DNA of 64,000 nucleotides from Bdellovibrionales bacterium (GCA_019695175.1 JAIBAM010000003.1:35033-99032); one strand, 5' to 3'. Positions 4,305 through 49,451 are shown, counted from the stretch's first letter. Program-made: numbers and translations. The notes: generated from the sequence alone by a model not told the origin.

Positions 4305-5687
4305 ATGGAACAACTCGATCCCCTTAAAAAAGCTCGTTCAATCAATATGGACTCTTCATTCTATGGCACCTTTGCTGAAATTGGCGCTGGACAAGAGGTT
4401 GCAAGATATTTTTTTCTCGCAGGACGAGCCTCCCAAACCGTGGCCAAATCCATTTCTGCCTACGATATGAAGGTCAGTGACTCGATCTATGGCAAGTCTA
4501 ATAGGTATGTCTGTCAGGAGCGAATTCTGCAGATGCTGGACCACGAATATGGACTTTTAGTAGAACGACTGAGTGAACAAAGAGGTGAAAAAACAAGATT
4601 TTTTGCCTTTGCTGACACTGTGGCCACAAGCAGTCACGGTGAACCTGATGCTCGTTGTCATGGATGGATGGGAATTCGTTATCAAACTTACTTCCAAGGT
4701 CCTCCCCATGAAATTATATTGCACATCCGATTGAAAGATCGATTCCGTTTGCAACAACAAGAGGCTTTAGGAATCCTTGGGGTAAATTTAATTCATTTAT
4801 CTTATTCCTTCCCTCGAACGCTGACCGAAATAGTAAAATGTTTAGTTCACAACCTTGGCCACGAAAGGTTGGAAATTAATTTTATCCGTTGCCAAGGTTC
4901 TGAAAATAGTTGGATCGACCATCGCCTCCTTAACTTAGAACTGGTTAAGCAAGGTGTGGCAGAAGCCGTTTTATTTGATGAAAAGGGTCACATTCAAAAT
5001 GCCTCAGACCTCTTATTCAGACAACCGGTTTTAGTTCAAAGAGGAACTTTTCGCCCGGTTACCAAAACCAATCTCACCTTGTTAGAAAAAGGAATGGAAC
5101 AGTTTCAAAGCCAATTTCAGCAAACTCCCCAAGTGCTCTTTGAGCTGACCATGCATGAATTGACCGCAGAGGGAGAACTAAGTCATAAGGATTTTTTAGA
5201 TCGGGTGGACACTTTATTAACCTTAGGACATAAAGTTCTTTTGACCCATTTTAAACTATCCTATCAAGTCAAAAGCTATCTCCGCTCTCACACCGATCAA
5301 GTCATTGGACTCATTGTAGGTGCCGATCAACTGGACCGACTTTTTGACTCTCAACATTACCAACATCTGCCCGGAGGAATTTTGGAGGGTTTTTCAAGAC
5401 TTTATGATGAAAAAACTAAGATATTAGTTTTCCCATTTAAATCGGAACAAATGTGTCTCACAGCCTCCACCTTTCATCCCACAGGTTCGCTGAAACATCT
5501 TTATCAATATTTTATACAACAAAAATTAATTACTGATATTTTAGGGTGTGAGGATGTGGACACGTCTATTCACTCTCAAGATGTGCGTTTAATGCTCAAA
5601 TCAGGAGATCCAAAATGGGAAGAATTGGTTCCACCCCCTGTTCGAGACCTTATCAAAAAACAAGGTTTATTTGGCGCAAAATTATAA
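4305..5687 (+). CDS. conserved-looking cytoplasmic protein of unknown function
   Basis: 460-aa ORF with no signal peptide. N-terminal block FYGTFAEIGAGQEVARYFF looks like a conserved motif, but I cannot assign it to a family. Its 3' end overlaps the only in-frame ATG of gspK. Confidence 0.6.
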   Translation: MEQLDPLKKARSINMDSSFYGTFAEIGAGQEVARYFFLAGRASQTVAKSISAYDMKVSDSIYGKSNRYVCQERILQMLDHEYGLLVERLSEQRGEKTRFFAFADTVATSSHGEPDARCHGWMGIRYQTYFQGPPHEIILHIRLKDRFRLQQQEALGILGVNLIHLSYSFPRTLTEIVKCLVHNLGHERLEINFIRCQGSENSWIDHRLLNLELVKQGVAEAVLFDEKGHIQNASDLLFRQPVLVQRGTFRPVTKTNLTLLEKGMEQFQSQFQQTPQVLFELTMHELTAEGELSHKDFLDRVDTLLTLGHKVLLTHFKLSYQVKSYLRSHTDQVIGLIVGADQLDRLFDSQHYQHLPGGILEGFSRLYDEKTKILVFPFKSEQMCLTASTFHPTGSLKHLYQYFIQQKLITDILGCEDVDTSIHSQDVRLMLKSGDPKWEELVPPPVRDLIKKQGLFGAKL

Positions 5688-7009
5688 ACTTTTATACAAT
5701 AAATAAATTTGTTTATGAAAAAAATAAGACTGAAGCTCCACCTAAAAAAATAAATCCACTCCAAAATCAAAATGGGGTGGCCCTTTTGGTGGCTATCTTC
5801 GCCATTATGCTTATGATTTTTATTGCCACTGAAGTTTCCTACGACACCTCTGTGGAATACGTGATGGCCCGACAGAAAGTAAATATACTTAAAGCCCGAT
5901 ATGCCGCAAAGGCCGGAGTGGAAATCTCTTTACTACGCATCGTCATTTATAAAAAAGTGGTTGCCGGGATTAGCAATGCGATGAGTCCCGAACAAGCCCA
6001 GCCCCTCATGAGCTTGTTGGATCCAATCTGGCAGATGCCTTTCACTTGGCCACCTGTACTTCCGGATCAAATGACTGGAACCGATAAGAGCAACGTGGAT
6101 GAAATTGTCAAAGTATCCCCCATGGACGCCCAATATTTAGCTACCATCTATAGCGAAGGTGGAAAAATAGACATTAACGATTTAAGTTCGGTCTCTAAAC
6201 AAATACAAAAAGTAACAGCACAACAAATTCTCAACATATTTAAAACTGAAGTCCTGAATAATGAAAAGTTTTCTGCCAAATACCGCGACACTAGATTTGA
6301 AGAGCTGGTGAATAACATTATAGATTGGGAAGATGAAAATTCTGAAAGTCTTAATGGTGGGGATGAAAGAGATAAATATAAAATTCGAAGTGACTTTTTG
6401 CCACCCAATGCCCCTTTTAAAACAATAAAAGAACTCAATATGGTTGCGGGCATGAATGAAGATTTTTTTAATTTACTTTCACAGCGGGTGACTCTCTTCG
6501 GAACTAAAGGGGTCAATGTCAACTACGCCAATGAAGAAGTCATCAGTAGTTTAGACCCTTCCATTAAAGGGGATATTTTAAATGCTCTCATCAAACGCAG
6601 AACAGATCCCAATGAAGGGGGCCTTTACCGCAATGAAGATGATTTTTTCCAATATGCAACCAGATTTGGAGCCAACGTGGAGGCCATAAAAAAATCTGGA
6701 ATCCCCTTACTCTTTGGTCCAGAATATAATTTCAGAATTATAAGTACGGGCGAATACGGCAAAGTCAAAGTTGAAATCACCGCCATTACCTATGATATGG
6801 GAAACCTACAATCACGTTACAGCACCCTTTTGGATAAGGACTCTCAAGACCTAAATAACCCCAACAAAGGTCCAGGAACTGTTGGGACTACAGATACAAA
6901 AACAGGAAATCCCTCCGATTCCCAGGGTAAAAATCCAACTGGAGAAAGCAAAACCAATATTATTCCTCCCAAAGGAAGGCCCATAGTGGTTTACTGGGAA
7001 GAGAAGTAA
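5615..7009 (+). CDS. gspK: type II secretion minor pseudopilin GspK (start uncertain)
   Basis: NG|VALLVAIFAIMLMIFIATEVSYD..ARYAAKAGVE is the typical GspK N-terminus, a pseudopilin helix lacking Glu+5. It is followed by gspL/M/N. The in-frame ATG at 5615 overlaps the upstream gene by 73 nt. Alternatives are GTG 5777 or a frameshift from ATG 5715. Confidence 0.75.
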   Translation: MGRIGSTPCSRPYQKTRFIWRKIINFYTINKFVYEKNKTEAPPKKINPLQNQNGVALLVAIFAIMLMIFIATEVSYDTSVEYVMARQKVNILKARYAAKAGVEISLLRIVIYKKVVAGISNAMSPEQAQPLMSLLDPIWQMPFTWPPVLPDQMTGTDKSNVDEIVKVSPMDAQYLATIYSEGGKIDINDLSSVSKQIQKVTAQQILNIFKTEVLNNEKFSAKYRDTRFEELVNNIIDWEDENSESLNGGDERDKYKIRSDFLPPNAPFKTIKELNMVAGMNEDFFNLLSQRVTLFGTKGVNVNYANEEVISSLDPSIKGDILNALIKRRTDPNEGGLYRNEDDFFQYATRFGANVEAIKKSGIPLLFGPEYNFRIISTGEYGKVKVEITAITYDMGNLQSRYSTLLDKDSQDLNNPNKGPGTVGTTDTKTGNPSDSQGKNPTGESKTNIIPPKGRPIVVYWEEK

Positions 7010-7042
7010 AATTCTTTAAGTATCGAGGGGGAAGGAAGCCAT

Positions 7043-8686
7043 ATGGTTTGTGTCGGTATAGACATAGGAACTTACAGCGTTAAACTCGTAGAACTGCAAA
7101 GCTCGACTAAAACCTATTCTCTCAGTCGATTCCAAGAATTTCTTCTTTCTGCGGATCCAAATAAAGATAAAAAAATAGAAGTCCTCGACATCCTCAGACA
7201 AATTGCCCAAGCCTACGATCCTATTACAACAAAATTTATTTTAGTCGTCCCTCAACAACACGTTGTACTAAGGCACCGCCATTTTCCCTTTAAAGAACGT
7301 TATAAAATACTTCGTAGCATTGCTTTTGACTTGGAAGACGATATTCCCCTCGCTCAAGAAGATTCCATTTTTGATGCCAAAATCACTCGAATTCTCGACA
7401 CCGGGGCCGAAGTCATTGCAAGTGCTTGTCCTAAAATTTATCTCAAAGAAGTGGTGCATTTGGCCCGAGAGGCAGGAATTGAGGCTGAGATTGTAAGCAT
7501 CGAGGGTCTTGCCCTAGGTAATTTGCTAGAAAACTGGATGGAACCGCCACAGATCAAATCCGTTCTTGAAGGCATTCCTGAACCACGCAATGCCGAGCTC
7601 ATTCTCAACATTGGTCACACTCGAACCCAGCTTGTTGCGGCCGCTGACAAAGCTCTTCTCACCGCAAGAAATATAGATTGGGGCGGAAAACAAGTCGCTG
7701 AGGCCATAGCAAATAAATATGGTTTACACTATTTGGAGGCCTTAAAAGATCTGCAAAAAAAATCGTTTATCTTGCCCTCTTCAGAGGGGGCAACAAAGGA
7801 TCAAGTTATTTTTTCGGATCTAATCAAACAAGCTTTTGAACCCATGATTCAGGAAGTTCGATTTTCCATTATTGAACTCATGGCAAATAATAATTTATTA
7901 TTTAGTAAAATTCATCTTTGTGGAGGCACTAGTCAAATAAAAGGATTGGGTCCTTTTTTAACTCAAAAACTTGACATTGCAGTCAATCGCTTTCGACACG
8001 TTTCCATTCATCCCCAATCTGTGCTTGGGGAAGGAACATACGAAGAAGCCATTTCCGCCACGGCCATAGGAGTGAGTCTTGAAGGGCTCAAACGACCGCG
8101 TCACCCTGCGAGCAATTTACTCAAAGAAGAATTTGCTCGACAAGCGGAATCACTTAAACTTTGGTGGGAAAAATGGCGCTACACCGTTCAACTCTCAGGA
8201 ACAGCCTTTCTGATTTTATTTATTTACAGTGTAATCAAAGATGATTTAGCCATCTCAATGAATGAAAAGGTATTAGAAGTTCTCAAAACACAGGCCGCAA
8301 CTATTGCAGATCTTAAGGGAAACCAAGCCTCACCCAATAATATTCGTAAATTTGTTAAAATTAAAAAAGAAGAAATCAGCGCTAGAAAAGTGGCCAACCA
8401 AGTAAAAAGCCTTAACTCTCCACTGGATGTTTTAGCTTTTATAAATCAAGTCTCTCCAGGACCCAAAAAAATGGTCGTGGAAATTCGCAAAGTAAATATT
8501 GAAAACGATCAACTTGAACTTTTTGGTGAGGTCAGCAGAACTGAATATTTAAATCAATTTCAACAAGTGCTGCAGAATGTGGCGATGGATGGGAAAGTCA
8601 CTCCGTTGTCATCCCCATCCCACCCCGACCCGAGCAAACGGAACTTCGGTTTTCGTTTAAAAATTGATCGTCACCGAGGAGGTTAA
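7043..8686 (+). CDS. gspL: type II secretion protein GspL (PilM-like actin-fold N-domain, single TM, periplasmic domain)
   Basis: RBS GGGGGAAGGAAG. N-terminus VGIDIGTYSVKLVEL (actin-like ATPase fold as in PilM/GspL). TM segment LSGTAFLILFIYSVI. Position between gspK and gspM. Confidence 0.7.
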   Translation: MVCVGIDIGTYSVKLVELQSSTKTYSLSRFQEFLLSADPNKDKKIEVLDILRQIAQAYDPITTKFILVVPQQHVVLRHRHFPFKERYKILRSIAFDLEDDIPLAQEDSIFDAKITRILDTGAEVIASACPKIYLKEVVHLAREAGIEAEIVSIEGLALGNLLENWMEPPQIKSVLEGIPEPRNAELILNIGHTRTQLVAAADKALLTARNIDWGGKQVAEAIANKYGLHYLEALKDLQKKSFILPSSEGATKDQVIFSDLIKQAFEPMIQEVRFSIIELMANNNLLFSKIHLCGGTSQIKGLGPFLTQKLDIAVNRFRHVSIHPQSVLGEGTYEEAISATAIGVSLEGLKRPRHPASNLLKEEFARQAESLKLWWEKWRYTVQLSGTAFLILFIYSVIKDDLAISMNEKVLEVLKTQAATIADLKGNQASPNNIRKFVKIKKEEISARKVANQVKSLNSPLDVLAFINQVSPGPKKMVVEIRKVNIENDQLELFGEVSRTEYLNQFQQVLQNVAMDGKVTPLSSPSHPDPSKRNFGFRLKIDRHRGG

Positions 8687-9387
8687 TGGTGAATCTTGAA
8701 GATATTAAGGATCAGCTTCGTGATCAACTTAAGACTCTGATTGAAAAAATTAAAGAATCTTCTTTATTTAATAACTTGACTGAAAAATACCATACCTTGC
8801 CTCCTCTAACACAAAAGGCCTGTATTTATGGAAGTGGACTTTTCGTAATTCTATTTATTTTTTCCATCCCTTACGCTTACATTGAATCAGCCCATCAACA
8901 TATTGCCGAATTTGAAGAAAACCGAACTCTACTACGTGAACTTTTACGTGTCGGTCGCGCGGCAAAAGATCCCCCACCTTTACCCCAAGGATTAAGTTCT
9001 CGAGAGTTGCAATCGAGGATGGAGTCTTTTACCTCTGAATTTCGCCTTCTTCCCGAGCAAGTCATTGGCATAAAGCCTCTAGGGGAACGTCCGGCCCCCT
9101 CTTTGGCGCCACCAGTTATTTTACAAGAAGGTGTTGCCGTCACCTATGCTAAACTTAACCTCTATCAAATTTTAGATATTGGTTATCGACTGCACAATCT
9201 TTCCGCGGGATCCAAACTCACCTCCGTGGATATTAAAGCCAACCCAGAAGACAATCATTACTTCGATACCACATTTAAAGTGGTGAGCTTTTCTTTACCG
9301 ATTCACTCCATGGAGCCGGAGACCTCCCAAAAGGGCTCCAGAAACCGTCCCCCTCCTAAACTGCCACGTGAGGAAACTGACTTATGA
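8686..9387 (+). CDS. gspM: type II secretion protein GspM-like
   Basis: TAATG coupling to gspL. Single N-proximal TM (ACIYGSGLFVILFIFSIPYAYI) and a bitopic architecture. The call rests mostly on position. Confidence 0.5.
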   Translation: MVNLEDIKDQLRDQLKTLIEKIKESSLFNNLTEKYHTLPPLTQKACIYGSGLFVILFIFSIPYAYIESAHQHIAEFEENRTLLRELLRVGRAAKDPPPLPQGLSSRELQSRMESFTSEFRLLPEQVIGIKPLGERPAPSLAPPVILQEGVAVTYAKLNLYQILDIGYRLHNLSAGSKLTSVDIKANPEDNHYFDTTFKVVSFSLPIHSMEPETSQKGSRNRPPPKLPREETDL

Positions 9388-10346
9388 TAGCACGCGCTTT
9401 ACAATCCTTCCTAAATGTCTTTAGGTTCCATAAAAAGAAAATTTTTTTTATGTTTTTCTGTATTGCTACTTTTTTATTCTGGCAATTCCCTTACGACGAT
9501 CTATCCGAAGTGGTTTCCACCCTAGTTGCTGAAAAGACAAACAATCAGGTTTTTCTCCAGTTTGATCGGTTGGGAATTCAGGTTTTTCCTTATCCGGCTT
9601 TGGCTGTGGATAATGTTGTTGTAGATTCTGGTTTTTTACCATCTATTCAAGCAGCTAAGTTATCTTTTGCTCCCTCTATTTCAGGTCTTATTTCATTTCA
9701 TCCCGGGTTCACTGCTGGCATTAAACAAGTATGGGATGGTGATATAAATTTAACTTTAAAGGCTGGAAAAAAAACGGAGCTTGGAGCGGCAACACAAAAT
9801 ATTTATTTAGATTTAGAACAAATTCAATTGGGACAAGCCTGGGAAGCTTTTGAACTTCCACTTAAGTTGCGCGGTGAACTTTCTGGTGAAATGAATGTAA
9901 ATCTTGACCCTAGTTTTACCACTCCGCCCGAAGGAAATATTGTTCTTGAGGTCAAAGAACTTAAATTTCCTTCGGGAGCTATCCCCACGCAAATGGGTCC
10001 GGTTATTTTACCTGCTTTAAGTTGGAAAAAAACCCAATTAAAGGGTCGTCTTGCAGGCGGAAAAATGACGTTAGAACCATCAGATTTTGGGGCCACGGGC
10101 GACTCTTTATTTGGATCCATAAAGGGTGAAATTGACTGCCGCATCGAGCCAGGGGATGGTCTCACTTTAGGAGCTTACAAGCTACAAATGGAGTTTCTAG
10201 TCACCCCAAAAGTGGAAAGAGAACTGGCTCCTTTTTTGATTCTACTATCCCCGTATAAATCTGCTACTCCCTCGGGCACCAAATATAAGTTTAAAGTGAC
10301 GGGACAACGCTTTGGCTACGCCCCTTCATTTAGCGCTGCATTATAA
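9384..10346 (+). CDS. gspN: type II secretion protein GspN-like
   Basis: ATGA coupling to gspM. N-terminal TM (IFFMFFCIATFLFWQF) followed by a beta-rich periplasmic domain. Last gene of the K-L-M block. Confidence 0.5.
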   Translation: MIARALQSFLNVFRFHKKKIFFMFFCIATFLFWQFPYDDLSEVVSTLVAEKTNNQVFLQFDRLGIQVFPYPALAVDNVVVDSGFLPSIQAAKLSFAPSISGLISFHPGFTAGIKQVWDGDINLTLKAGKKTELGAATQNIYLDLEQIQLGQAWEAFELPLKLRGELSGEMNVNLDPSFTTPPEGNIVLEVKELKFPSGAIPTQMGPVILPALSWKKTQLKGRLAGGKMTLEPSDFGATGDSLFGSIKGEIDCRIEPGDGLTLGAYKLQMEFLVTPKVERELAPFLILLSPYKSATPSGTKYKFKVTGQRFGYAPSFSAAL

Positions 10347-10460
10347 TCTCGACTCTTTGATTTTTCATTGTTCTTTTCCCTTAGAATTTGCTTTATTCCT
10401 CGCAATAAACTCTGAATTCAGACACCTAATAGGTCGTAATTTTTTGCAAGTGAGGTTTTT

Positions 10461-10895
10461 ATGGCAGGAGTAAACAAAGTTATTTTGGTTGGACGTCTTG
10501 GCGCTGACCCAGAAGTGAAACCCGTGAATAATGGAAATTCAGTAGCTCGATTTAATTTGGCCACCAGCGAAAATTGGACAGATAAAGATGGACAAAAACA
10601 AGAGCGCACCGAGTGGCACCGAGTGGTTGTCTGGAGCAAACTTGCAGAACTGTGTGGTCGCTATTTAAGTAAGGGTCGACAAGTTTATGTGGAAGGCCGC
10701 CTGCAAACCCGTTCTTGGGATGATCCGCAAGGACAAAAACGCTACACCACAGAAGTGGTAGCCAATGTGGTGCAATTTTTAGGTGCAGGAACTGGACCTT
10801 CAGCACCAGCACCTTCTGCAACAAATGACGCTGGCCTATCAGGAATGAGTTTTCAAGAACCCAACTTTAATTTTTCTGAAGAAATTCCATTTTAG
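10461..10895 (+). CDS. ssb: single-stranded DNA-binding protein
   Basis: [39 protein letters not shown], a Gly/Pro/Ala-rich tail and an acidic C-terminus EEIPF. Confidence 0.95.
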
Positions 10896-10932
10896 TTTTG
10901 CCTCAATGTAGAACTTCCGCAATCATAGTATT

Positions 10933-11391
10933 GTGGAAGTCTCTGTAAAATCACCACCTCATAAAAAAATTTTTTTAAAAGTCACAAAGTTAAAACCATC
11001 GAATAAATACATTTTATTTATTTTTGTTGGATTTAGTATCTCCTCTTGTTCACTTTACCAAAGCGATGGCAGAAAGCTTTTGCAAGATAGGGCTTCGGAA
11101 AACAGTAAAGGAAATTTCTCGGTTTCAGATCATTGTAACAAAATAACCCCAAAGGATCCTGTTGTTTTCCCCTTAACCGAAGATTCCTTTTCTCAAGAAG
11201 ACCTGAAATTAAGGTATTCAGATTCTCAGGTCGTTATCTATCAAAGTATCTTGGCTCAAAATCAATGGGTTGGCGTGACAACCAAAAATCACTGTCAATT
11301 TTCAGTACAAAATGACGCTGCCGCCAAAATAAACGAACTTCAACTCTTAGAGTTCCTCAAAAATTACCTTCTAGACCTCGACAACAGTTGA
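10933..11391 (+). CDS. small lipoprotein, unknown function
   Basis: GTG start. Lipobox FSISS|C after a hydrophobic stretch. Confidence 0.45.
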   Translation: MEVSVKSPPHKKIFLKVTKLKPSNKYILFIFVGFSISSCSLYQSDGRKLLQDRASENSKGNFSVSDHCNKITPKDPVVFPLTEDSFSQEDLKLRYSDSQVVIYQSILAQNQWVGVTTKNHCQFSVQNDAAAKINELQLLEFLKNYLLDLDNS

Positions 11392-11476
11392 GTTCCTTAA
11401 CCACTAAGAATCAGTTTATTTTGCGTTAGCACCACAAACTCCTTAACATAAATACTGAATAAGGTGGGGAACTTCA

Positions 11477-12430
11477 ATGATCATAAAAAAAATAAATACC
11501 GCAATATTGATAAAACAAAAAAATAAATACATATCCATCGACCATTTGAAGATAGCGATTTTCATTTTGAGTGTCCTTGCAACAAATTGTCTCCACGCAG
11601 CTAAAATTGCCAAAATTCAGGGACAAAAAGTTTTAATTAACCTGGAAGGCGACCCAGCAGAAAAGGGAGACATCTTTGCTGTTTATGATCCCGTGGGAAA
11701 AAAGAAAGGTCTACTTCGTATTAAGGGTGTTCGAAATGATAAAGCCATTGGATTTTTAGGAAAAGGAACGGCTCAAGTGGGTTGGGTGACCAAGGTCAGC
11801 AAATCCTCATCTGGCGACTCCACTTCTAAACAAACTTCCCACAAAACAGAAGGAATGAAGAGCAGCGCTTCCCCAACTAGCCAGAGAGCTTACTGGGGTT
11901 TGATGGGTGGAGCTTCACTGGATTCTATGTCAGTTGATATTGACAATTCAGTTCCTGCGGACAATGTGGCAGACAAAACTGTGGCTTTAAGCGGAACTTC
12001 CTTTTCGGTGAAAGGATTTTTTGATTATCAATTACTGGATCAGATTTGGTTCCGAGGGCTTTCTGGGATACAGGGGCTTTCTGCTGCAAGCTCTAGCACT
12101 GAATCCGGTTGTTTAAGCAAACCTTGTTCGGTGGATATTTATTATCTCCCTTTTGATTTCTGGGGACGGTATCAATTCACCACAAGTTACTTCCGCCCTT
12201 GGGTTGGGGTGGGCTTCAGTCTTCTCTTCCCTGTAACCAAAGATGCCACAGCTATCCAAAAATCTTCCATCACCAACACCAGTCTATTTTCTGTCGGATT
12301 TGGTTTTGATTGGTTTATAGCCCCAAATATCTTTATCCCGGTACAGGTGGATTATTCCATTTTCCCAAAGTCTGAGACTGTTGAAGCCAGTTCAATTAAT
12401 ATGACTGCAGGCTTGGGACTCCCCTTTTAA
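11477..12430 (+). CDS. outer-membrane beta-barrel protein (porin/OmpA-barrel-like), unknown function
   Basis: Hydrophobic leader. The C-terminal half has alternating aromatic/hydrophobic strands and ends GLGLPF (terminal Phe, OMP signature). Confidence 0.5.
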   Translation: MIIKKINTAILIKQKNKYISIDHLKIAIFILSVLATNCLHAAKIAKIQGQKVLINLEGDPAEKGDIFAVYDPVGKKKGLLRIKGVRNDKAIGFLGKGTAQVGWVTKVSKSSSGDSTSKQTSHKTEGMKSSASPTSQRAYWGLMGGASLDSMSVDIDNSVPADNVADKTVALSGTSFSVKGFFDYQLLDQIWFRGLSGIQGLSAASSSTESGCLSKPCSVDIYYLPFDFWGRYQFTTSYFRPWVGVGFSLLFPVTKDATAIQKSSITNTSLFSVGFGFDWFIAPNIFIPVQVDYSIFPKSETVEASSINMTAGLGLPF

Positions 12431-17273: not shown

Positions 17274-17319
17274 TAACTGTGACTTCCTTACGCGACTAAC
17301 TGTGACTTCCTTACGCGAC
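17274..17319. repeat. perfect 23-bp tandem duplication spanning the stop codon of the cyclase gene
   Basis: taactgtgacttccttacgcgac occurs at 17274-17296 and 17297-17319. On the minus strand each copy reads GTCGCGTAA.., that is Val-Ala-stop. Confidence 0.9.
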
Positions 17320-19446: not shown

Positions 19447-19469
19447 TGTTTCCCTTGTTCCTGTTTTTC

Positions 19470-21791: not shown

Positions 21792-21856
21792 GGGTGGATC
21801 GGCCAAAAAATATATCTATTTAAGAGTTAGATAATTTGTCAAATTTCTAAACAAAC

Positions 21857-23452: not shown

Positions 23453-23807
23453 GAATGTGGTTTGTTTTGGACTTATCTTTGTGGCGATTTGGGTAACGAT
23501 TTGGTTTTTTTGGTTTTTGTTTTTTTGTTTCATACAAACTACCTTCGCAATAGAAGTGCCTTACACTCTTTCCGCCAAATAGTCTATATTTAACCTGAGC
23601 TGCAAATTTAGTTAAATTCTCAAGTTGAGACATGTCATTGAAATTACAGGGACATTTTTTGTCGGCCAAAAATGGGCTCTCTCCACTTGATCGAAAAATT
23701 ATGTTGCACCGTTATAATAAATTTATTTAGATGTATTGATTGAACCTTTCCGCCGTTCGGTCCGCCAATATTGAACACTTCAACCTCTAACAACTGCTCA
23801 CCAGCGT

Positions 23808-24946: not shown

Positions 24947-25107
24947 AGTGGCCTCGCTCGTCTCTTCTCATGAAAATCCCAAATAAAATTGAGGTCTAAC
25001 CCCAGAAAATGAGCCGTGATTTTTTTGGCGATAAGCCCATTGAAAGGCCGTGTTTCTATCTCAAACTTTTTAAAACTCATCCCTCTGAACTCACAATCAA
25101 TTCCACT

Positions 25108-25426: not shown

Positions 25427-25453
25427 GGTTTTGTAGTTGATTAGGAGATTTTT

Positions 25454-40125: not shown

Positions 40126-40200
40126 TTATTACAAATAGCAAGGCAACGATTTTAATAAAATAAAAATACTTCAAGTATTTCAGCCAAGGAAGGGTGAATT

Positions 40201-42495
40201 ATGGGCCAGCAGATGTCGATGAACATCATCAGAAAGACGATCCATGAAACAGCAAAATTTATTTTTATATTTCCTTTTTTCTTTTCTCACTACAGTCAAG
40301 CACAAGAAAATGCATTTTTAAATTCAAACTCTAAAAATAAGACTTCTTTTGCTCCTCCGGAAGGAACTCGTGATAAAAAAGGAGGCTTTGTAAGTGATAA
40401 AACCAAGGCTAAATTTTCAGAAGCCAACATTGAAGATATAAACAATAAAAATTTTCCAGATTTAATTGAGAGTTTTGATTACCCCAATGCGGAAATTACG
40501 GATGTGGTCAAAGCTATTTCCGAGCTTACCGGAAAAAACTTTATTATTGATCCTGCTGTTCGAGGTAAAATAACCATCATTGCACCTTCACAAATCACTG
40601 TGGCTGAAGCCTACAAAGCCTTTCTTTCAGCCCTAGCGATCAATGGAATGGCTGTGGTACCCACTGGGGACGGTTTTTTAAAAATCAAACCAGCACGGGA
40701 AGCGCAAAGGGACTCCATAGAAACCTACTCAGGAAGCTATTACCCCAACTCTGACACCATGATCACTAAAATTATCAAACTGAAATATATTAGTGCTGAA
40801 GAAGTAAATAAAAATTTACGCCAGCTTCAGTCCAAAGTAGGTGAAATAAATCCCTACCCACCCACCAACTCTATTATTATGACGGACTACGGATCCAATG
40901 TGGATCGTTTCATGAAAATCATTACCCAATTAGACATCCCTGGTTACGAGGAACAACTGGAAGTTATGCGCATTAAATATGCAAAAGCCAAAGACATGGC
41001 TGACTTGATAGATCAAATTATCACTAAGGGCGAAGGACGCGGTGGTGGCAATCAAGGTTTTGGGGGTGTTCCTCGATTCCGCAGAGCAAGTCCTGATGGC
41101 GGTGGAGGTAACGCCACGGGAGATATCCCCAGTTTAGTTCTACCCGACGATCGCACCAATTCTATCATCGTGGTGGGCAACCAAGCTGCCGTGGATAAAA
41201 CCAGAAAACTAGTGGCGCGTTTAGATTTTCGCTTAAGACCTGAGGATGAAGGCGGCGTTTTTGTTTATTACGTGCGCTACTCTGAAGCTGAAAAAATTGC
41301 CGAAATGATTAATGGTATTGCAACTGAATCTAAAAAGGCTATGGATCAAGGTCCAGGAACAGCCCGTCCTGGAGTCACCGGGGCGGCCCCGGGCCCCTCT
41401 GCCAACGTGATTTTTGGCGGTGACGTTAAAGTCACAGCGGACAAAATCACCAATAGTTTGATAGTGGTCTCCAGTAAACCCGACTATGAAAAAGTTAAAA
41501 ATTTACTTTCAAAAATTGATATTGCTCGTGATCAAGTTTTTGTAAAAACAATTATTATGGAGTTAGCAGCACAGGATAAAGCTAAATGGGGTATTGATTA
41601 CTACCGTTTTGACAAAGCCAGTGCAGGAATTGGGCGAATGGGCTTTCGAAGCTCAGACAGTGTCTCTTCCATTCTCTCTCCCGAAAGTGATAGTGGTGGA
41701 ACTTTTGGTTTTGGTTTTGGGGGAACTTTTGATCTTAAAACATCCACAGGAACCATACCAGTGGCCTCCTTAACTGGATTAATTAACTTTTTTAAAAGCA
41801 ATGTTTCAACAAATATTCTTTCCGAACCGACCGTCATGGCTTTAGATAATGAGGAAGCTCTGATTGAAGTGGGAGATAAAGTTCCTGTTTCATTAACCAC
41901 AAGCATGGCCGCTGGAGGAATTTCGCAACAAAGTGCCAACCGCGAACCCGTTACCATTAAACTCACTTTAACCCCTTACATCAGTCCCGACACAGACTCT
42001 GTACAAATGAAAATCAATCAGGAAATCAATCAAATCTCTACTACGAACGTTGGTGGTGCCTCTGAAGTCGCTAAAAATGGTGTCACCACATCCACTCGAA
42101 ATGTAAAAACCCAAATCGTCGTTAACAGTGGAGATACCGCCGTTCTCGGAGGTTTGATGCAAGACAAAGATGAGGAAACTATTAAAAAAATTCCTATCCT
42201 TGGTGATATCCCCATTTTAGGTTGGCTTTTCAAATCTAAACTAACAGAAAAAAATAAAAAGAATTTAATGATTTTCATCACTCCCAAAGTCGTGCGCAAT
42301 GGCGATGACAGTGGGGCCATTCTCAATCAAAAACTCAATGAACGCATTGAGTTCATTCAACGCAGCATGAATGGACGTGACCCTTTTGGTGAAATCCTTG
42401 ACAACTTACCACGTCGGGCCGCTAAAGAAACCTCTCCCAATCCAGATATGGAAGAAATGGAAAACAACGAAGAACCGGCAGGGGAATCTCTTTAA
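40201..42495 (+). CDS. gspD: type II secretion secretin GspD
   Basis: N0-N3 repeats (NSIIVVG, NSLIVVSS). Secretin core DQVFVKTIIMELA.. and KIPILGDIPILGWLFKS..NLMIFITPKVV. Confidence 0.95.
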   Translation: MGQQMSMNIIRKTIHETAKFIFIFPFFFSHYSQAQENAFLNSNSKNKTSFAPPEGTRDKKGGFVSDKTKAKFSEANIEDINNKNFPDLIESFDYPNAEITDVVKAISELTGKNFIIDPAVRGKITIIAPSQITVAEAYKAFLSALAINGMAVVPTGDGFLKIKPAREAQRDSIETYSGSYYPNSDTMITKIIKLKYISAEEVNKNLRQLQSKVGEINPYPPTNSIIMTDYGSNVDRFMKIITQLDIPGYEEQLEVMRIKYAKAKDMADLIDQIITKGEGRGGGNQGFGGVPRFRRASPDGGGGNATGDIPSLVLPDDRTNSIIVVGNQAAVDKTRKLVARLDFRLRPEDEGGVFVYYVRYSEAEKIAEMINGIATESKKAMDQGPGTARPGVTGAAPGPSANVIFGGDVKVTADKITNSLIVVSSKPDYEKVKNLLSKIDIARDQVFVKTIIMELAAQDKAKWGIDYYRFDKASAGIGRMGFRSSDSVSSILSPESDSGGTFGFGFGGTFDLKTSTGTIPVASLTGLINFFKSNVSTNILSEPTVMALDNEEALIEVGDKVPVSLTTSMAAGGISQQSANREPVTIKLTLTPYISPDTDSVQMKINQEINQISTTNVGGASEVAKNGVTTSTRNVKTQIVVNSGDTAVLGGLMQDKDEETIKKIPILGDIPILGWLFKSKLTEKNKKNLMIFITPKVVRNGDDSGAILNQKLNERIEFIQRSMNGRDPFGEILDNLPRRAAKETSPNPDMEEMENNEEPAGESL

Positions 42496-44175
42496 ATGAA
42501 TTTCACCAGTATAATAGCTAAAGCCACCAGTCTGTCGAATGAGGAAGTGCAAATGCTTTTAAACTTTCTCAATCAAAGTGGCATCACTTTAGAGGAAGCC
42601 ACTAGAGAACAACAGTACACCAATCCTGAGGACGCTGTAGCTGATCTTTGCAAACATTTACAAATTGATTTTATTAAAGATATCCCCGTCAATGATATTT
42701 CAGCCGAAATGGTTCGTGACATTCCAATTAATTATGCCAAAAATCATCAAGTGCTACCCTATAAAACTGAATCTGATCGCGTGTATGTTCTAACTACCAA
42801 CCCGCTCAACCGCAAAGCCATTGATGATTTACGAGTTCGTTTTGATAAACGCATTCACCCACTTATGACCACTTCTTCCCGTTTGCACGATGCAATAAAT
42901 CGTGTTTATGAAAAAAGCACGGCGGCCCTGGAGGGATTGGAAACCATTGAAAGTGAAGAATATGATTTGGACGATCCTGTCATTGATTTGTTAGAAGCTG
43001 GTGATGATGATGCCCCTGTGATCAAATTGGTTAACACTCTTTTATTTCGTGCAGTCAAGGAAAAGGCTTCAGATATTCATATTGAACCTTTTGAACGGGA
43101 CATGTCGGTGCGGTTTCGTGTGGATGGTATTATGTTTGAAATTTTCAAACCACCCAAAAAATTACAAAATGCGATCACCTCTCGTATAAAAGTAATGGGA
43201 AATTTAAATATCGCTGAAAAAAGACTACCTCAGGATGGCCGCATTCCACTTAAATTAGCGGGTAAAGATATCGATGTTCGTCTTAGCACAGTTCCAACGG
43301 CATTCGGCGAACGCCTGGTGATGCGTTTGCAAGACCGATCGAATGTGATTTTAGAATTAGTACAACTGGGATTTTCTGAAGACAGTTTGAAAAAAATTGA
43401 TCATTTATTAAATAAAACTTATGGGATTGTTTTGGTCACAGGACCCACCGGAAGTGGTAAATCCACCACCCTCTATGCTTGTCTTTCAAAAATTAACAGT
43501 GTGGATAAAAACATTATTACGGTAGAAGATCCGGTGGAACAAAGAATTCATGGCATTGGTCAGATTCAAGTGAACGCCAAAATCGGACTGACTTTTGCCA
43601 GCGGTTTACGCTCCATTCTTCGCCAAGACCCTGAAATTATCATGATCGGTGAGATTCGTGATTTGGAAACTGCTGAGATCGCAATCAACTCTTCCCTTAC
43701 CGGTCACCTTGTGCTTTCCACTATCCACACCAATGACGCTGCCGGAGCCTTCCCTCGATTGATTGACATGGGTTGTGAACCCTTCCTTATTGCCACATCC
43801 CTTTTAGGGGTCGTTGCTCAACGTTTAGTGCGAGTGCTCTGCCCCCATTGCAAAGAGCCCTACACACCAACAGATGTGGAGCTTCGCAGCTTAGAATTAA
43901 CCCGTGAAGCATTGACTGGTGCAACTCCCCACCGAGCTGTGGGATGCGCTGAGTGCAATCAAAAAGGTTACATTGGACGCTCAGTGATTCAAGAACTTCT
44001 TCTGGTAAACGATGAAATTCGCAGTTTAATCATGCAGAGAAAAGATGGAAATACAATCAAAAAAGAAGCTCTTCGCCAAGGCATGTCCACTTTACGTGAA
44101 CATGGAATTCAAAAAATGTTAACGGGAATCACCTCGGTCGAAGAAGTTTTGGCAAATACACAAATGGATATCTAG
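42496..44175 (+). CDS. gspE: type II secretion ATPase GspE
   Basis: Walker A GPTGSGKSTT, Asp box, Walker B IIMIGEIRD, His box TGHLVLSTIHTND, and the tetracysteine CPHC..CAEC. The ATG directly follows the gspD stop. Confidence 0.96.
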   Translation: MNFTSIIAKATSLSNEEVQMLLNFLNQSGITLEEATREQQYTNPEDAVADLCKHLQIDFIKDIPVNDISAEMVRDIPINYAKNHQVLPYKTESDRVYVLTTNPLNRKAIDDLRVRFDKRIHPLMTTSSRLHDAINRVYEKSTAALEGLETIESEEYDLDDPVIDLLEAGDDDAPVIKLVNTLLFRAVKEKASDIHIEPFERDMSVRFRVDGIMFEIFKPPKKLQNAITSRIKVMGNLNIAEKRLPQDGRIPLKLAGKDIDVRLSTVPTAFGERLVMRLQDRSNVILELVQLGFSEDSLKKIDHLLNKTYGIVLVTGPTGSGKSTTLYACLSKINSVDKNIITVEDPVEQRIHGIGQIQVNAKIGLTFASGLRSILRQDPEIIMIGEIRDLETAEIAINSSLTGHLVLSTIHTNDAAGAFPRLIDMGCEPFLIATSLLGVVAQRLVRVLCPHCKEPYTPTDVELRSLELTREALTGATPHRAVGCAECNQKGYIGRSVIQELLLVNDEIRSLIMQRKDGNTIKKEALRQGMSTLREHGIQKMLTGITSVEEVLANTQMDI

Positions 44176-44250
44176 TTTGCTTTAAATGTGATTTCCTTAA
44201 CTAAAGATTATTGTATTTAAAACATTGAGTGTAAAAGGACTCGTACTTTC

Positions 44251-45474
44251 ATGGCCATATTTGAATATCGTGGATTGAATCGAGCGGGAAAAAATGTACG
44301 CGGCACCGTTGAAGCCGACAATTCTAAAACCGCCAGATCACGTCTTAAAAAAGATGGTATTTTTGTTATTGATCTCAAAGATAAGTCCAAATCCACAAAA
44401 AAAAATAAAGGGAACAAACCGTCATCTCAAGGCGGATCAGTCGGAGTGGAAGTCCTCTCTACCATGACTCGTCAATTGGCTTCATTGTTAAAGGCCAACG
44501 TCCCATTAGTTGATGCATTAGGAGCGGTTTCTGAACAAGTAGAGAATGCCACTCTGTCAGAAGTGATGGCTGAAATGAGAAGTTCCATTAACGAAGGGGG
44601 ATCCTTTCACCGGGGCTTAGCTAAGTACCCCAAGATTTTTGACACCACTTATGTTTCCATGTGTGAAGCTGGTGAAATGTCTGGAACCCTTGATGTCATT
44701 TTAATTCGTTTAGCCGAATTTACTGAAGCGCAAGCCGCTTTGAATACAAAAGTGCGTTCTGCAATGATCTATCCTGTGGTTATGATGGTCTTTACCACTC
44801 TTTTACTGGGTGTTCTGTCTGTCTTTGTCATCCCTAAAATTGTCTCCGTATTTGAATCCTTTCCCGAGATCACCTTACCTTGGTACACTATTGCAGTAAT
44901 CCATTTTAGTGAATTTGTGGTGAGTTACTGGCATGTTCTTATTGTGGCAGGAGTTATACTTTATTTTTTATTTCGCAGTTGGAAAAACACTCCCGAAGGT
45001 CGAGCACAATGGGACGCTCTATTTTTAAAATTTCCTCTGGTAGGGAAATTAGCACGGATGGTGGCGGTTTCCAGATTCACCCGAACTCTTGCCACTCTAC
45101 TCACTGGCGGTGTTCCCATGTTGGCAGCCCTAGGAATCGTGAGAAATGTGGTAAATAATGAAGTCATCGCTAAAGCTATTGATCAGGGTCGAGAAAATGT
45201 GAGTGAAGGTGAGTCCATCGCCAGTCCTTTGAAAAAATCCGAACAGTTCCCTCCCCTTGTTATTCACATGATTAGTATTGGTGAAAAAACTGGAGACTTG
45301 GAAAATATGTTGATTCAAGTCAGTGAGGCCTATGACTTTCAAGTAAAGTCTGCAGTGGATGGCATCACTTCTCTTATGGAGCCACTTATGATTATTATTA
45401 TGGGATGCGTAATCGCCTTCATTGTTTTTGCAATCATGATTCCTATTTTTGAACTTTCAAACATTGGTGGATAA
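44251..45474 (+). CDS. gspF: type II secretion inner-membrane platform GspF
   Basis: MAIFEYRGLNRAGKNVRG.. and duplicated GspF domains (..CEAGEMSGTLD.., ..ISIGEKTGDLE..). Three TM regions. Confidence 0.95.
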   Translation: MAIFEYRGLNRAGKNVRGTVEADNSKTARSRLKKDGIFVIDLKDKSKSTKKNKGNKPSSQGGSVGVEVLSTMTRQLASLLKANVPLVDALGAVSEQVENATLSEVMAEMRSSINEGGSFHRGLAKYPKIFDTTYVSMCEAGEMSGTLDVILIRLAEFTEAQAALNTKVRSAMIYPVVMMVFTTLLLGVLSVFVIPKIVSVFESFPEITLPWYTIAVIHFSEFVVSYWHVLIVAGVILYFLFRSWKNTPEGRAQWDALFLKFPLVGKLARMVAVSRFTRTLATLLTGGVPMLAALGIVRNVVNNEVIAKAIDQGRENVSEGESIASPLKKSEQFPPLVIHMISIGEKTGDLENMLIQVSEAYDFQVKSAVDGITSLMEPLMIIIMGCVIAFIVFAIMIPIFELSNIGG

Positions 45475-45537
45475 TGATAAATGTAATAGATCAACAAATC
45501 AGACAATTTAAATTTCAGTCTGTAAAGCGGAGGCTTC

Positions 45538-45948
45538 ATGATACGTAATCGACGGGGTATGACTCTTTTAGAAATTATGATTGTTCTTGCGATTGTAGCC
45601 AGTCTTATTGGAATTTTGGCCGGACAGATTCGAGGTCGAATGAAAAAAGCACAAATGAACCAGGCTAAAATTCAAATCGGTGAGCTGAGCAAAGCGCTGG
45701 ATAACTATTACACCGATTGTAACTCCTATCCACCTGAATCAGAAGGGTTCCAAGCCTTAGTTAGTCAACCCACCTCTTGCACCAACTGGGGACCTGAGCC
45801 TTATCTTAAGAGACTCCCCAAAGATCCTTGGGGACAAGATTTTATTTATAAATCAAATGGTAGTTCTTTTAGTATCCTATCCTATGGAGCTGATAAAAAA
45901 GAAGGCGGCGCAGGTGAAGGGGCCGATATTTCCTCTGAGACCATGTAG
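45538..45948 (+). CDS. gspG: type II secretion major pseudopilin GspG
   Basis: RBS GGAGG. Prepilin leader MIRNRRG|MTLLEIMIVLAIV. ..PKDPWGQDFIYKS..SYGADKKEGG. Confidence 0.93.
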   Translation: MIRNRRGMTLLEIMIVLAIVASLIGILAGQIRGRMKKAQMNQAKIQIGELSKALDNYYTDCNSYPPESEGFQALVSQPTSCTNWGPEPYLKRLPKDPWGQDFIYKSNGSSFSILSYGADKKEGGAGEGADISSETM

Positions 45949-46618
45949 TCTTGTTGTAAACAAATTTAATTTTAAAAAAAGGGGAGCTCGAGGTTTTTCC
46001 TTGCTTGAGCTCATGATTGTACTGGGACTCGTTGCCGCCCTCGTAGCCTTGGCCGTTCCCAAACTCACAGGACAGAATAATCAAATACGCCAAGCAGTTC
46101 GAAAAATATCCTCCTTAGGACGACAGCTGCATAACAGCGCTATGATGAACGGCGCGATGTATCGTTTGGTGATTGACTTAAAAACAGATTCTTCCAAAGA
46201 TAAACAAGAGTACTGGGTCGAAGTGGCTACCAGTCAAAATGTGTTGCGGCCAGAGGAAATGGCCGAAACCTTGGCGGAACGCGAAAAGCGGGAACAAGAA
46301 AAAAGAGAATCAAAAAAAGACTCTGATTCCAAATCAGAAGAAGAACAAAAATTATTTACTGTGGATACAAAAATTTTAAAAAAACCTGAAACGCTTCCGG
46401 GGTCCCTCACTTTTGAAGATGTGGAATTTCGTCGCAGCAACAACCCCTTTAAAGAAGGTCGGGTTTATATCTACTTTTCTCCCCAGGGTCTTGCAGATGA
46501 AGCGGTCATCCATCTTAAGGCCAATGAAAAACTACGTTGGTCTTTGGCCCTTAGACCACTCACGGGAAAAACTGAAGTTATTACCGAATACATAAGTTTA
46601 AAGGCACTCCACGAATGA
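45884..46618 (+). CDS. gspH: type II secretion minor pseudopilin GspH (start uncertain)
   Basis: Prepilin site ..KKRGARG|FSLLELMIVLGLVAAL. The only canonical in-frame starts upstream of the cleavage site are ATG 45884 and GTG 45917, both inside the gspG 3' end. Confidence 0.7.
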   Translation: MELIKKKAAQVKGPIFPLRPCSLVVNKFNFKKRGARGFSLLELMIVLGLVAALVALAVPKLTGQNNQIRQAVRKISSLGRQLHNSAMMNGAMYRLVIDLKTDSSKDKQEYWVEVATSQNVLRPEEMAETLAEREKREQEKRESKKDSDSKSEEEQKLFTVDTKILKKPETLPGSLTFEDVEFRRSNNPFKEGRVYIYFSPQGLADEAVIHLKANEKLRWSLALRPLTGKTEVITEYISLKALHE

Positions 46619-47205
46619 ATCCTTCTGACAAAAAACACTTAGGATTTACTCTCCTCGAAGTTCTCATCGCTATGACAATTTTGGTAGGAGGCATGGTTAT
46701 CATGTCCACCTCATGGACTGGAAACTTTATGAGGGTGCGTAAAGCCACTCTTTACAACAATGTGGCCCTGTTATTGGAACGTAAAATGGTAGAGATCCAG
46801 GCCGAGTACACCAATAAATCCATTGAAGAAATCGTGGACAAAAGTGGTGATTTTGGCTCTGATCAACCCTTATACCGTTGGGAATTTAAAACCCATGAAT
46901 TTAAAATGCCTGACTTATCTGCCGCCATTTTAGGCAAAAATGGTGGTCAAAATGAAATGTTCCTAGAAATGGTTAAACAGTCCACGGAATTTATTTCCAA
47001 ATCGATTAAAGAGGGCACTGTTACTATTTTTGTAAAGACTGGTGGTAAAAATAAAGAGATGCCTTTTTCAGTCACAACCTATTTTATTGATTACAATCGG
47101 GAAATGCCCCTCCCAGGTGGTCTTCCCTCAAACCCTCAACCCTCTAACAACAATAGTAATGATAGCCCTGCAGGAGGTCAGAAATCTCAGGGCAAGGGAA
47201 CTTAG
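46615..47205 (+). CDS. gspI: type II secretion minor pseudopilin GspI
   Basis: ATGA coupling. Leader MNPSDKKHLG|FTLLEVLIAMTIL. Confidence 0.75.
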   Translation: MNPSDKKHLGFTLLEVLIAMTILVGGMVIMSTSWTGNFMRVRKATLYNNVALLLERKMVEIQAEYTNKSIEEIVDKSGDFGSDQPLYRWEFKTHEFKMPDLSAAILGKNGGQNEMFLEMVKQSTEFISKSIKEGTVTIFVKTGGKNKEMPFSVTTYFIDYNREMPLPGGLPSNPQPSNNNSNDSPAGGQKSQGKGT

Positions 47206-48158
47206 TGAATCTATCCCCTTCTCTTCCATGGCAGAAAGGATTCACTCTTCTTGAGATTATTATTGCCATGGCAATTCTTGCTTTTTTGACTCTCTTTACT
47301 GCCCAATCCATCCAAAAGGCTTTACAGAACAAATCAAAAATACAAGATGATATTGATCGATACAGTGCCATCAGAGATGCCTTAAGAGTCATGGAATCCG
47401 ATATTAATAAAGCTTTCAATTATCGCGACATTAATATTGAGCTCTACAACAATATTGTGAATTTAAGAAATAAAACTCCAGATAACAATTCCAACCCTGA
47501 GGCTCCAAAAAGTGCCACCGGAAAAGTGGACCCAATCCAAGCCAAATCACCCTTTGATCCCAATACAACAAACAATAGTCCAGAAACCCTCAAACCGAGA
47601 ATGGAAAGAATTGTCACCCAATTTCTAGGTGAATCCAATAAATTGGACTTTACAACTTTATCTTATGCCCGTGTATCCGCAGAGGAAAGAACTAGTGATC
47701 AAGCTAAAATTGGATATTTTTTAAAAGACTGTCGGAGCTGGAAAAATCGAACGAAAACATCCCGTTGTTTATATCGTAGAATTTCTTACCTACTTGATGA
47801 TGATGTGACAAAAGGAGGAGAAGAAACTCCCCTTTTGGAAAATGTCACTAAACTTGAATTTCAGTATTTAGGCCCTGTTGATCCAACCACCTGGGTCAAA
47901 AGTTGGTTTACCAACGCGCGTGGTGACGATCGAACGAAAGGTGTTTTCCCTTACGCCGTTGAAATTACCCTGGAAGTTGAAAACAAAACAAATCCTAAAA
48001 CAAAACCCATTCGTATGACCCTCATTGCATCTATCCGCAATCCCAATAATCCCGACAAGAAAAATTCAATGGACCCAACAGGTGCAATTACCAATCCAAA
48101 CGGCGATAAAGGAATCAATCCAAATTTTGATCCCGCCACGGGTCAACCCATAAAATAA
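47205..48158 (+). CDS. gspJ: type II secretion minor pseudopilin GspJ
   Basis: GTG start overlapping the gspI stop. Leader ..PWQKG|FTLLEIIIAMAILAFL. Longer than classical GspJ, with a Pro/Asn-rich tail. Confidence 0.7.
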   Translation: MNLSPSLPWQKGFTLLEIIIAMAILAFLTLFTAQSIQKALQNKSKIQDDIDRYSAIRDALRVMESDINKAFNYRDINIELYNNIVNLRNKTPDNNSNPEAPKSATGKVDPIQAKSPFDPNTTNNSPETLKPRMERIVTQFLGESNKLDFTTLSYARVSAEERTSDQAKIGYFLKDCRSWKNRTKTSRCLYRRISYLLDDDVTKGGEETPLLENVTKLEFQYLGPVDPTTWVKSWFTNARGDDRTKGVFPYAVEITLEVENKTNPKTKPIRMTLIASIRNPNNPDKKNSMDPTGAITNPNGDKGINPNFDPATGQPIK

Positions 48159-48303
48159 AATTTTAAATGATGGGAGAAAGTTACAGGAAAATTAGAGCAA
48201 AAAGCTTTTGAGCAACGGGACCAAAACCCCTAACTAAACAACCCACATCCAAAGTGGTTCCCAAAGGTAAAATTGGGTGGCTCCGACTTTTGAAATCTCG
48301 CAC

Positions 48304-48331
48304 TCAGTCATCAGTCATCAGTCATCAGTCA
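48304..48331. repeat. 7-bp tandem repeat x4 (tcagtca)
   Basis: Direct reading: four perfect copies, 92 nt left of the IS boundary. Confidence 0.9.
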
Positions 48332-48422
48332 TTTTAATTAACCTGGAATTTTATCTCCACTATTCTTCTTCTCAGTTTTTTTATTTTATCTGGGCTTTCA
48401 TCCGAGTCTTTACGAGCCAACG

Positions 48423-49451
48423 TTAATAACGTCAGTTTCGTTTAAGCAGCCAATAATTTTTGTGTAGAAGTATTAAAATCAAATCTCATCTGTGGTTTGT
48501 TTGGATAAAGGACATAGGCAGCAAGACCCGAGAAGAGGTTCACCATAAAATTCAATGAACTTCGATGCCTTGTATGCTCGATTTGCATAACGTCCTTAAG
48601 CTGGTGGTACACGGACTCTATCAGTGAGCGCTTTCTTAAAATCAATCTATCTGCAATTTCCATCATTCTGGGTTTCATATTTTTCCTTGCTTGAGTAACA
48701 AGCTTAAGGCCGCGTTTGAAAAACTCTTTAAAAAGCTTCATGCTGATATAACTCTTGTCTCCAAAAAGCTTCCCAACCAAATTCTTAAAAGTTCTCCCAC
48801 AACCTTGTTATCATTAATGTTTCCAGGCGTGAGTTTAAAGGCCAAAATCTCTCCCGGTTCGTTAATTATTAGATGCAGCTTGAACCCGAAAAAATAGCCC
48901 ATTGTGGATTTCCCACGCTTTGCAAGTCCATCAAAAACCTTATGGGAGAATATTCTTTTATTATGGCAAACCACAATTGGAGTGGCATCGACAATAGATA
49001 TTCCACTGCATTTACCCATATGTGTTCTTGTAAAGGCTATCAGAGGAATCATTGCCATTTTCTTGAGACTAACAAAACGAGAATAGCTCATCATTCCTGG
49101 GAAAAAGATCCCTGTGGAAGGCCAGTAATTGAAGGTAAAAATGCTTAAAGGTTCTTATTTTGGAATAATGAAATGCAATAACAGTTGTCATCACTTCGCA
49201 TAAGCATAATCCTGCTTCTCGGGTCCTGTGTCTTACGCCCGTTGTCAGCAGAGTTTTGAACCAATGGGGTTCAAATTCTTTACAAAAAGCATCGACAATA
49301 CAATACAAAGTGGTCCAATCTATGTTGCTCATGCCAGTTTCCCCTTCCTTGAGGTTTTGTTTTGTTTAACTCAACCCCTCAAAGGGGCCGACATGACTTT
49401 CAAGTATTTTTACAGACTTACGACTGGCTTAAACGAAACTGGCGTTAATAA
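48423..49451 (-). mobile_element. IS982-family insertion sequence, about 1.03 kb, degenerate
   Basis: Terminal inverted repeats ttaataacgtcagtttcgtttaagc (48423-48447) and the reverse complement of gcttaaacgaaactggcgttaataa (49427-49451), 23/25 identical. The internal transposase is split over three frames. Confidence 0.75.
48442..49332 (-). pseudogene. IS982-family DDE transposase, two frameshifts
   Basis: Listed ORFs 49069..49332 (LYCIVDAFCKEF..), 48738..49094 (..KRGKSTMGYFFGFKLHLIINEPGEILAFKLTPGNINDN..) and 48442..48780 (..GDKSYIS..RKNMK..IESVYHQLK..HTRHRS..) together recapitulate an IS982-type transposase of about 295 aa. Confidence 0.75.

Follow-up and report, generated by a model that had tools for sequence, protein, structure and literature searches.

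The window, a stretch of 64,000 nucleotides (nt) from a Bdellovibrionales bacterium (JAIBAM010000003.1, 35033-99032), carries the 12 genes of a type II secretion system (T2SS) that is otherwise an ordinary system of the Bdellovibrio/delta type, but whose operon has very probably been cut between gspJ and gspK by a chromosomal rearrangement in this lineage. The genes form two blocks, both on the + strand, whose order is cyclically permuted, with gspK-N (5615-10346) first and gspC-J (39184-48158) approximately 29 kb downstream. A single-locus T2SS, in which all core genes are contiguous and co-oriented, is not present in the window. The coordinates, common strand and overlaps of gspK-N, and the coordinates, gaps of 0-75 nt and gene overlaps of gspC-J, had been given in a preliminary description of the sequence and were reproduced by open reading frame (ORF) listing (Table 1). 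All 12 genes are intact, and the machine that they encode from two loci is, judging by its genes, probably working.

Curated family thresholds were passed by the products of gspC, gspD, gspE, gspF, gspG, gspJ, gspK and gspN. The K, L, M and N calls of the preliminary description were borne out by profile searches for K and N, which score above their cut-offs, but only 16.5 bits were obtained with the GspL model (TIGR01709) and M had no profile match. The PDB matches of the GspL equivalent are to PilM; its architecture and position fit GspL, and it shares 60% identity with the product of the gene that follows gspK in the relative L001. The protein at the GspM position found no match in Pfam, NCBIfam or a PDB search with a 15-sequence profile. 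It has a transmembrane segment at approximately aa 41-69 and an orthologue between L and N in the contiguous operons of relatives. A helix-strand-strand-helix-strand-strand order is predicted after this segment in a single-sequence AlphaFold model of low confidence (pLDDT 44), which was too poor for a fold search. No prepilin peptidase gene (gspO) was found among the window ORFs scanned, in agreement with the preliminary description, and the clusters of relatives likewise lack gspO.

Table 1. Coordinates and predicted identities of features in the window, in order of position.
Feature	Position	Strand	Description
gene A, conserved hypothetical (460 aa)	4305-5687	+	New upstream neighbour of gspK; full-length homologues are 460-470 aa
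gspK (minor pseudopilin)	5615-7009	+	PF21687 35.4 bits (cut-off 26.2); NF037980 over 295/307 model positions
GspL equivalent	7043-8686	+	PilM_2 93 bits (PilM-like cytoplasmic domain); one transmembrane segment; C-terminal periplasmic domain
Bitopic protein, GspM position	8686-9387	+	Assigned by position and orthology between L and N only
gspN (Leptospira/delta type)	9384-10346	+	TIGR04411 67.7 bits (cut-off 50)
ssb, 152-aa ORF, outer membrane protein (OMP) beta-barrel gene	10461-12430	+	Ancestral downstream flank; travelled with gspK-N
Intervening genes (~25 kb)	12659-37830		Not syntenic with T2SS loci of relatives
Probable decayed mobile island, gene-poor (3.4 kb)	23534-26933		Group II intron remnant and TacA/GNAT pair; small ORFs look like fragments
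Group II intron match	23975-24069	-	Rfam RF00029, all 77 model positions, 54.6 bits
TacA-like antitoxin (PF08681), then GNAT acetyltransferase	25454-26247	+	Resembles a TacA/TacT-type toxin-antitoxin pair
gene X	37922-38641	-	Ancestral divergent upstream neighbour of gspC; kept with gspC-J
gspC	39184-40125	+	NF041515 GspC_delta 166.3 bits (cut-off 150); PDZ-type GspC
gspD	40201-42495	+	PF00263 (Secretin) 159.6, PF03958 (Secretin_N) 135.4 and PF21305 (N0) 84.9 bits
gspE	42496-44175	+	T2SSE 480 bits
gspF	44251-45474	+	T2SSF 204 bits
gspG	45538-45948	+	T2SSG PF08334, above cut-off
gspH	45857-46618	+	N_methyl motif and weak GspH/XpsI matches only; position conserved
gspI	46615-47205	+	N_methyl motif and weak GspH/XpsI matches only; position conserved
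gspJ	47205-48158	+	PF11612 43.9 bits (cut-off 28)
Non-coding spacer (264 nt)	48159-48422		Follows gspJ; four tandem TCAGTCA at 48304-48331
IS982-family element	48423-49451	-	Full-length, 1029 bp; transposase in three frames; 25-bp inverted repeats
gene B, S1/P1-nuclease-like	49464-50711	+	New downstream neighbour of gspC-J

The ancestral layout is X(-)-gspCDEFGHIJKLMN-ssb-h-OMP, which is found together with relA(-) as a single block in the two closest metagenome-assembled genomes (MAGs) and in a complete Pseudobdellovibrionaceae chromosome. A scan with a GspK alignment, using one genome per species, recovered 80 loci across Bdellovibrionota including Bdellovibrio bacteriovorus. Informative loci were those with at least 900 nt of flank upstream of gspK, and gspJ is directly upstream of gspK in all of them (76/76 species loci). 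Relatives that lack the insertion sequence (IS) found beyond gspJ in the window therefore do not share its split, and the rearrangement proposed in the preliminary description is upheld, with the cut falling exactly between gspJ and gspK where relatives are contiguous. This comparison of gene orders indicates that the split is derived and lineage-specific. As also proposed, gspK is no longer co-transcribed with gspH, gspI and gspJ, because the separated halves cannot share a transcript.

The closest other GspK in a collection of 5.8 billion proteins is 62% identical. Identities to the same relatives are 65% for GspC, 71% for GspD, 84% for GspE, 80% for GspF, 70% for GspG, 54% for GspH, 63% for GspI and 55% for GspJ in one half, and 62% (K), 60% (L), 56% (M) and 56% (N) in the other, with 70% for ssb, 50% for OMP and 56% for X. 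As these values are congruent over both halves, gspK-N belongs to the same system as gspC-J and completes it, rather than being a paralogue. A paralogous partial system was considered for gspK-N, and is ruled out by the congruent identities together with the ancestral ssb-OMP flank.

Each half has kept one ancestral flank, X with gspC-J and ssb-OMP with gspK-N, and has one new flank. By retaining X, the gspC-J half presumably also retains its native divergent promoter region. Downstream of gene A, relatives have a TPR gene (~600 aa) coupled to it by ATGA, then a peptidase M17 gene and other genes; beyond X they have a 368-aa gene, Cob_adeno_trans, FGase, ResB and CcsA. Neither the TPR gene and its neighbours nor the neighbourhood beyond X was found in the window, and relA is absent from its position after the OMP gene. 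At least four ancestral adjacencies are broken, namely A/TPR, 368aa/X, J/K and OMP/relA. From the gene content of the flanks, the change was no simple two-block swap, as each half has also lost its other ancestral neighbour.

The genes between the halves include those for FabH-like, PTPS, Hsp20 and SerS proteins, two large unknown proteins, a trypsin-like protease, SLT-like and VWA proteins, thiolase, CoA-transferase A/B and a cNMP-binding protein, as well as a decayed island. No tblastn matches were found between these intervening genes and the flanks of relatives, and the earlier view of the 29 kb between the blocks as unrelated housekeeping genes plus a decayed island stands, since the region is not syntenic with the T2SS loci of relatives. 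A simple insertion between gspJ and gspK was rejected as an explanation because it would leave gspC-J upstream of gspK-N. The order gspK-N...gspC-J cannot be produced in this way; it would take a block transposition or 'rotation' with at least three or four breaks, perhaps spread over several steps.

Independent assemblies support two of the new junctions. A Logan contig from a different sequencing run (L005) shows no difference from the window over positions 5205-8423, which include the A/gspK junction. Two further independent assemblies (L006 and L007) cover gspF-J. Contig L095 covers the mevalonate genes downstream of gene B and gene B itself, enters the right inverted repeat of the IS for 15 nt and ends there, which confirms the B/IS junction. 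Proteins K1X29_02870 and K1X29_03035, which are encoded on a single MAG contig of 113.6 kb at NCBI ('Bdellovibrionales bacterium'), match the products of genes A and X, respectively, with 100% identity. In exact-pattern scans of JGI metagenomes, no matches were found for the gspJ 3′-end or for the IS inverted repeat. Look-ups by exact protein sequence gave no record for GspJ, for the 100%-identical copy of gene A (P0121) or for an IS ORF.

The 18 places at which L005 departs from the window are all in the first 214 nt (4991-5204), where divergence is 8% and mostly synonymous, and the next 3.2 kb are identical. Either strains that occur together have recombined at this point, or the short-read contig is chimeric.

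An assembly artefact, with a chimeric MAG contig and an operon that is contiguous in reality, is considered extremely improbable. Its attraction is that the source is a metagenome-assembled genome and that the IS is a potential repeat, within which L095 breaks. However, the independent assembly that is identical over 3.2 kb has the A/gspK junction, with gene A and not gspJ preceding gspK, and 264 nt of sequence unrelated to gspK separate gspJ from the IS. As gspK is preceded by gene A in L005, a mis-join at the IS could alter the sequence beyond gspJ but would not restore the adjacency of gspJ and gspK.

Several points count against a cut operon as presented here. The J/IS junction and the continuity of the 29 kb are supported by the MAG assembly alone, and the stop of L095 inside the inverted repeat suggests repetition of the IS in that sample, with a possible mis-join through it. 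The order and number of events are not reconstructable, as the nearest relatives share only ~62% identity. Promoter-like matches do not exceed shuffled expectation; match counts in the promoter and terminator scans were no higher than in shuffled sequence, and no claim about transcription units is based on them. Finally, the loss of the native gspK start, described below, could be the beginning of decay.

The A/gspK junction is a fusion of 27 nt behind a full-length gene A (stop at 5687). Homology to other GspK proteins begins near 5741. A native-looking gspK ATG is found at 5715-5717 in an ATGA context like the J/K overlaps of relatives, but is 1 nt out of frame, and a run of seven A residues (A7, 5718-5724) follows it directly. 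Addition of one A would give MKKNKTEAPPKKINPLQNQNG/VALLV... (MKKNK...), compared with MIKNRMPSPFRILRQRRG/VAIL... (MIKNR...) in the closest relative, and the native ATG may have been put out of frame by the loss of 1 nt in the poly-A run. Upstream of the prepilin cleavage site of GspK, a canonical start in frame occurs only once, as the ATG at 5615; this codon falls within the 3′-terminal part of gene A, and an AGGAG stands 7 nt before it (5603-5617, + strand). No canonical in-frame start was found between the gene A stop and G54, and both this AGGAG and this ATG are absent from the gene A homologues in L088 and L089. The same gspK start sequence is carried by L005, and thus it is no assembly error.

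Translation of GspK probably starts at the ATG at 5615, within gene A, and the 54-residue leader would be removed by prepilin peptidase between G54 and V55. Slippage at the A7 run would be a less probable way of making GspK. For transcription, gspK-N could depend either on read-through of gene A or on a promoter within the 3′-part of that gene; the scan found no terminator-like site on the + strand between gene A and gspK.

The same features can be read as signs of a decaying system, in which separation from gspHIJ and the lost native gspK start have left the gspK-N half, or the whole T2SS, non-functional. The out-of-frame ATG at 5715 and the debris of mobile elements nearby would fit, but all 12 ORFs are full length, GspK retains every invariant column of a 25-sequence alignment, and an in-frame ATG with a consensus Shine-Dalgarno sequence is present. 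Moreover, a long leader that overlaps the preceding gene is also seen for GspH in this clade. Decay is accordingly held to be very unlikely, and a cut operon with two working halves is preferred.

The element beyond gspJ belongs to the IS982 family, and its position 264 nt after gspJ, the 23/25 identity of its inverted repeats (48423-48447 and 49427-49451) and its three transposase frames, all noted previously, were reproduced by repeat and profile searches. No such repeats are expected by chance. On the IS982 transposase model (NCBIfam NF033520), the three minus-strand frames fall one after the other at positions 3-35, 38-147 and 153-241, with 16, 110.9 and 94.5 bits (total 221); since the ORF is broken, none reaches the 130-bit cut-off by itself. 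PF13612 (DDE transposase) is matched with 118 and 98 bits. The transposase carries two frameshifts and lacks the intact ORF of an active element. The sequences that flank the element (gagccaacg and tttactctc) include no direct repeat and hence no target-site duplication. The spacer between gspJ and the IS does not resemble the sequence ahead of gspK, and a local alignment of the sequences after gspJ and before gspK detected no remnant of a duplicated J/K junction, the score being at chance level (reached by 519/1000 shuffles).

The suggestion that the IS marks a breakpoint holds in part. The element adjoins the J-side break, and relatives without it are contiguous, but no IS or inverted-repeat trace was found at the A/K, OMP/fabH-like or cNMP/X junctions. 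Other IS982 copies, solo inverted repeats and transposase fragments were not found in the 64-kb window, including the region near 4.3-5.7 kb to which the preliminary description had pointed. A causal role for the IS in the split is plausible, on circumstantial grounds; the element may be the scar of IS-mediated recombination or, equally, a later insertion into the new intergenic region.

If IS982-mediated recombination made the cut after gspJ, either between IS copies or by excision and re-insertion of an IS-bounded circle, the present element would be a hybrid scar. The short distance of the IS from the gspJ stop, the lack of a target-site duplication, as expected of a recombinant IS, and the end of L095 in the inverted repeat, a sign that the population may hold more than one copy, are consistent with this. 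Such an origin can nevertheless be put forward only tentatively, since the other new junctions and the rest of the window are free of IS traces, a short duplication could have mutated away from an element that is itself decayed, and the spacer between gspJ and the IS is unexplained.

Alternatively, the IS may be a passenger that was inserted after the operon had been split by illegitimate recombination, or by tandem duplication and reciprocal loss, and that then decayed. The clean, IS-free state of the other novel junctions, with only 27 nt at A/K, argues for this order of events, as does a different cyclic permutation with tight junctions in a relative. However, the absent target-site duplication fits simple insertion less well and no duplicated J/K junction remnants are detectable. 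The prospects of this explanation are a little below even.

The relative concerned is Bdellovibrionaceae MAG_57 (JABWCN010000003.1; L072, positions 1-11218), in which gspLMN-ssb-h-OMP is directly upstream of gspFGHIJK on one strand. The gap between these blocks is 67 nt and contains no Ns, gspCDE is outside the 21-kb locus, and there is no obvious IS. Rearrangements of the operon are rare among the 80 loci, and parts of it are inverted in two further species. In L054, the inverted gspE-F occupies the strand opposite to gspG-K, ~3.3 kb upstream of it, and in L086 an inverted gspC-D-E is divergent from gspF-N.

Two broader readings are that cyclic permutation is recurrent in Bdellovibrionota and that the separated gspK-N half was rescued in the window when another operon took it over. 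For the first, a common mechanism could be tandem duplication followed by reciprocal loss, or an excised circle that was opened elsewhere on re-insertion, at J/K in the window and at E/F and K/L in L072. For the second, a 1-nt deletion could have fused gspK to a new start with a Shine-Dalgarno sequence in the upstream gene, or GspK synthesis could depend on -1 slippage at the A7 run. These readings are considered unlikely.

Among the genes that separate the halves, the gene-poor stretch of 3.4 kb is probably a decayed mobile island, and no intact reverse-transcriptase ORF was found near the group II intron match in it. Two adjacent large ORFs (711 and 778 aa) without a Pfam or NCBIfam match are located at 17311-21806 (- strand) upstream of the trypsin-like protease gene, where the G+C content is higher (~0.46). 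At the 5′-end of gene B, a 24-nt tandem repeat encoding DENLNMEN (49516-49587) is present in 3 copies in the window and 2 in L095, and its copy number is polymorphic. Beyond gene B is a mevalonate operon (50886-56239, - strand) with genes for a GHMP (mevalonate) kinase, diphosphomevalonate decarboxylase, a 311-aa protein without a Pfam match, HMG-CoA reductase and an FMN-dependent dehydrogenase resembling type 2 isopentenyl diphosphate (IPP) isomerase.

No new system or mechanism is revealed by this arrangement. It is of interest as a clean and datable operon break in a multiprotein machine with a gene order that is otherwise invariant across the order (76/76 loci). The cut falls exactly on a gene boundary and both halves are intact, and co-transcription of the tip-complex genes gspI and gspJ with gspK would not be obligatory. 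How the downstream half of a broken operon comes to be transcribed again and acquires a new start codon can also be studied on the gspK-N block, as a natural experiment on a small scale.

Compared with known systems, the window has the same 12 genes as the operons of B. bacteriovorus Bd5 (NZ_CP168968; L052) and Pseudobdellovibrionaceae CP060220 (L003), with which it shares GspC_delta, GspN_Lepto, a PilM-like GspL, the X, ssb and OMP flanks and the lack of gspO in the cluster. The difference is that the 76 informative Bdellovibrionota relatives have one block, whereas the window is cut at J/K with its permuted halves ~29 kb apart. L072 resembles the window in that its version of this operon is also cyclically permuted and keeps to one strand, but its breaks are at E/F and K/L rather than J/K and its blocks are 67 nt rather than 29 kb apart. 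Like other members of the IS982 family, the element near gspJ is ~1 kb long with a single DDE transposase (PF13612/NF033520) and terminal inverted repeats, and it differs from them in its two transposase frameshifts and the lack of a flanking direct repeat.

T2SS genes typically form one locus in which their order is conserved, Legionella being among the exceptions (bioRxiv 10.1101/576694), and in Acinetobacter and Legionella they are distributed over up to five loci (PMC5553014, PMC9952577). The statement in the preliminary description that Gsp clusters are contiguous thus holds for the typical case but not for these genera. In Legionella pneumophila (lsp) and Acinetobacter baumannii (gsp), as in the window, the genes are at multiple loci, and a functional T2SS is produced from separate transcription units with the prepilin peptidase located elsewhere (PMC5553014, PMC9952577, bioRxiv 10.1101/576694). 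Those splits typify whole genera, whereas the split in the window is one recent break in one uncultured lineage of an otherwise single-locus clade. In Legionella, gspK presumably stays with lspFGHIJ. A two-locus T2SS is a known kind of arrangement, and the window stands out for one cut, between gspJ and gspK, that is restricted to its lineage in an otherwise invariant clade.

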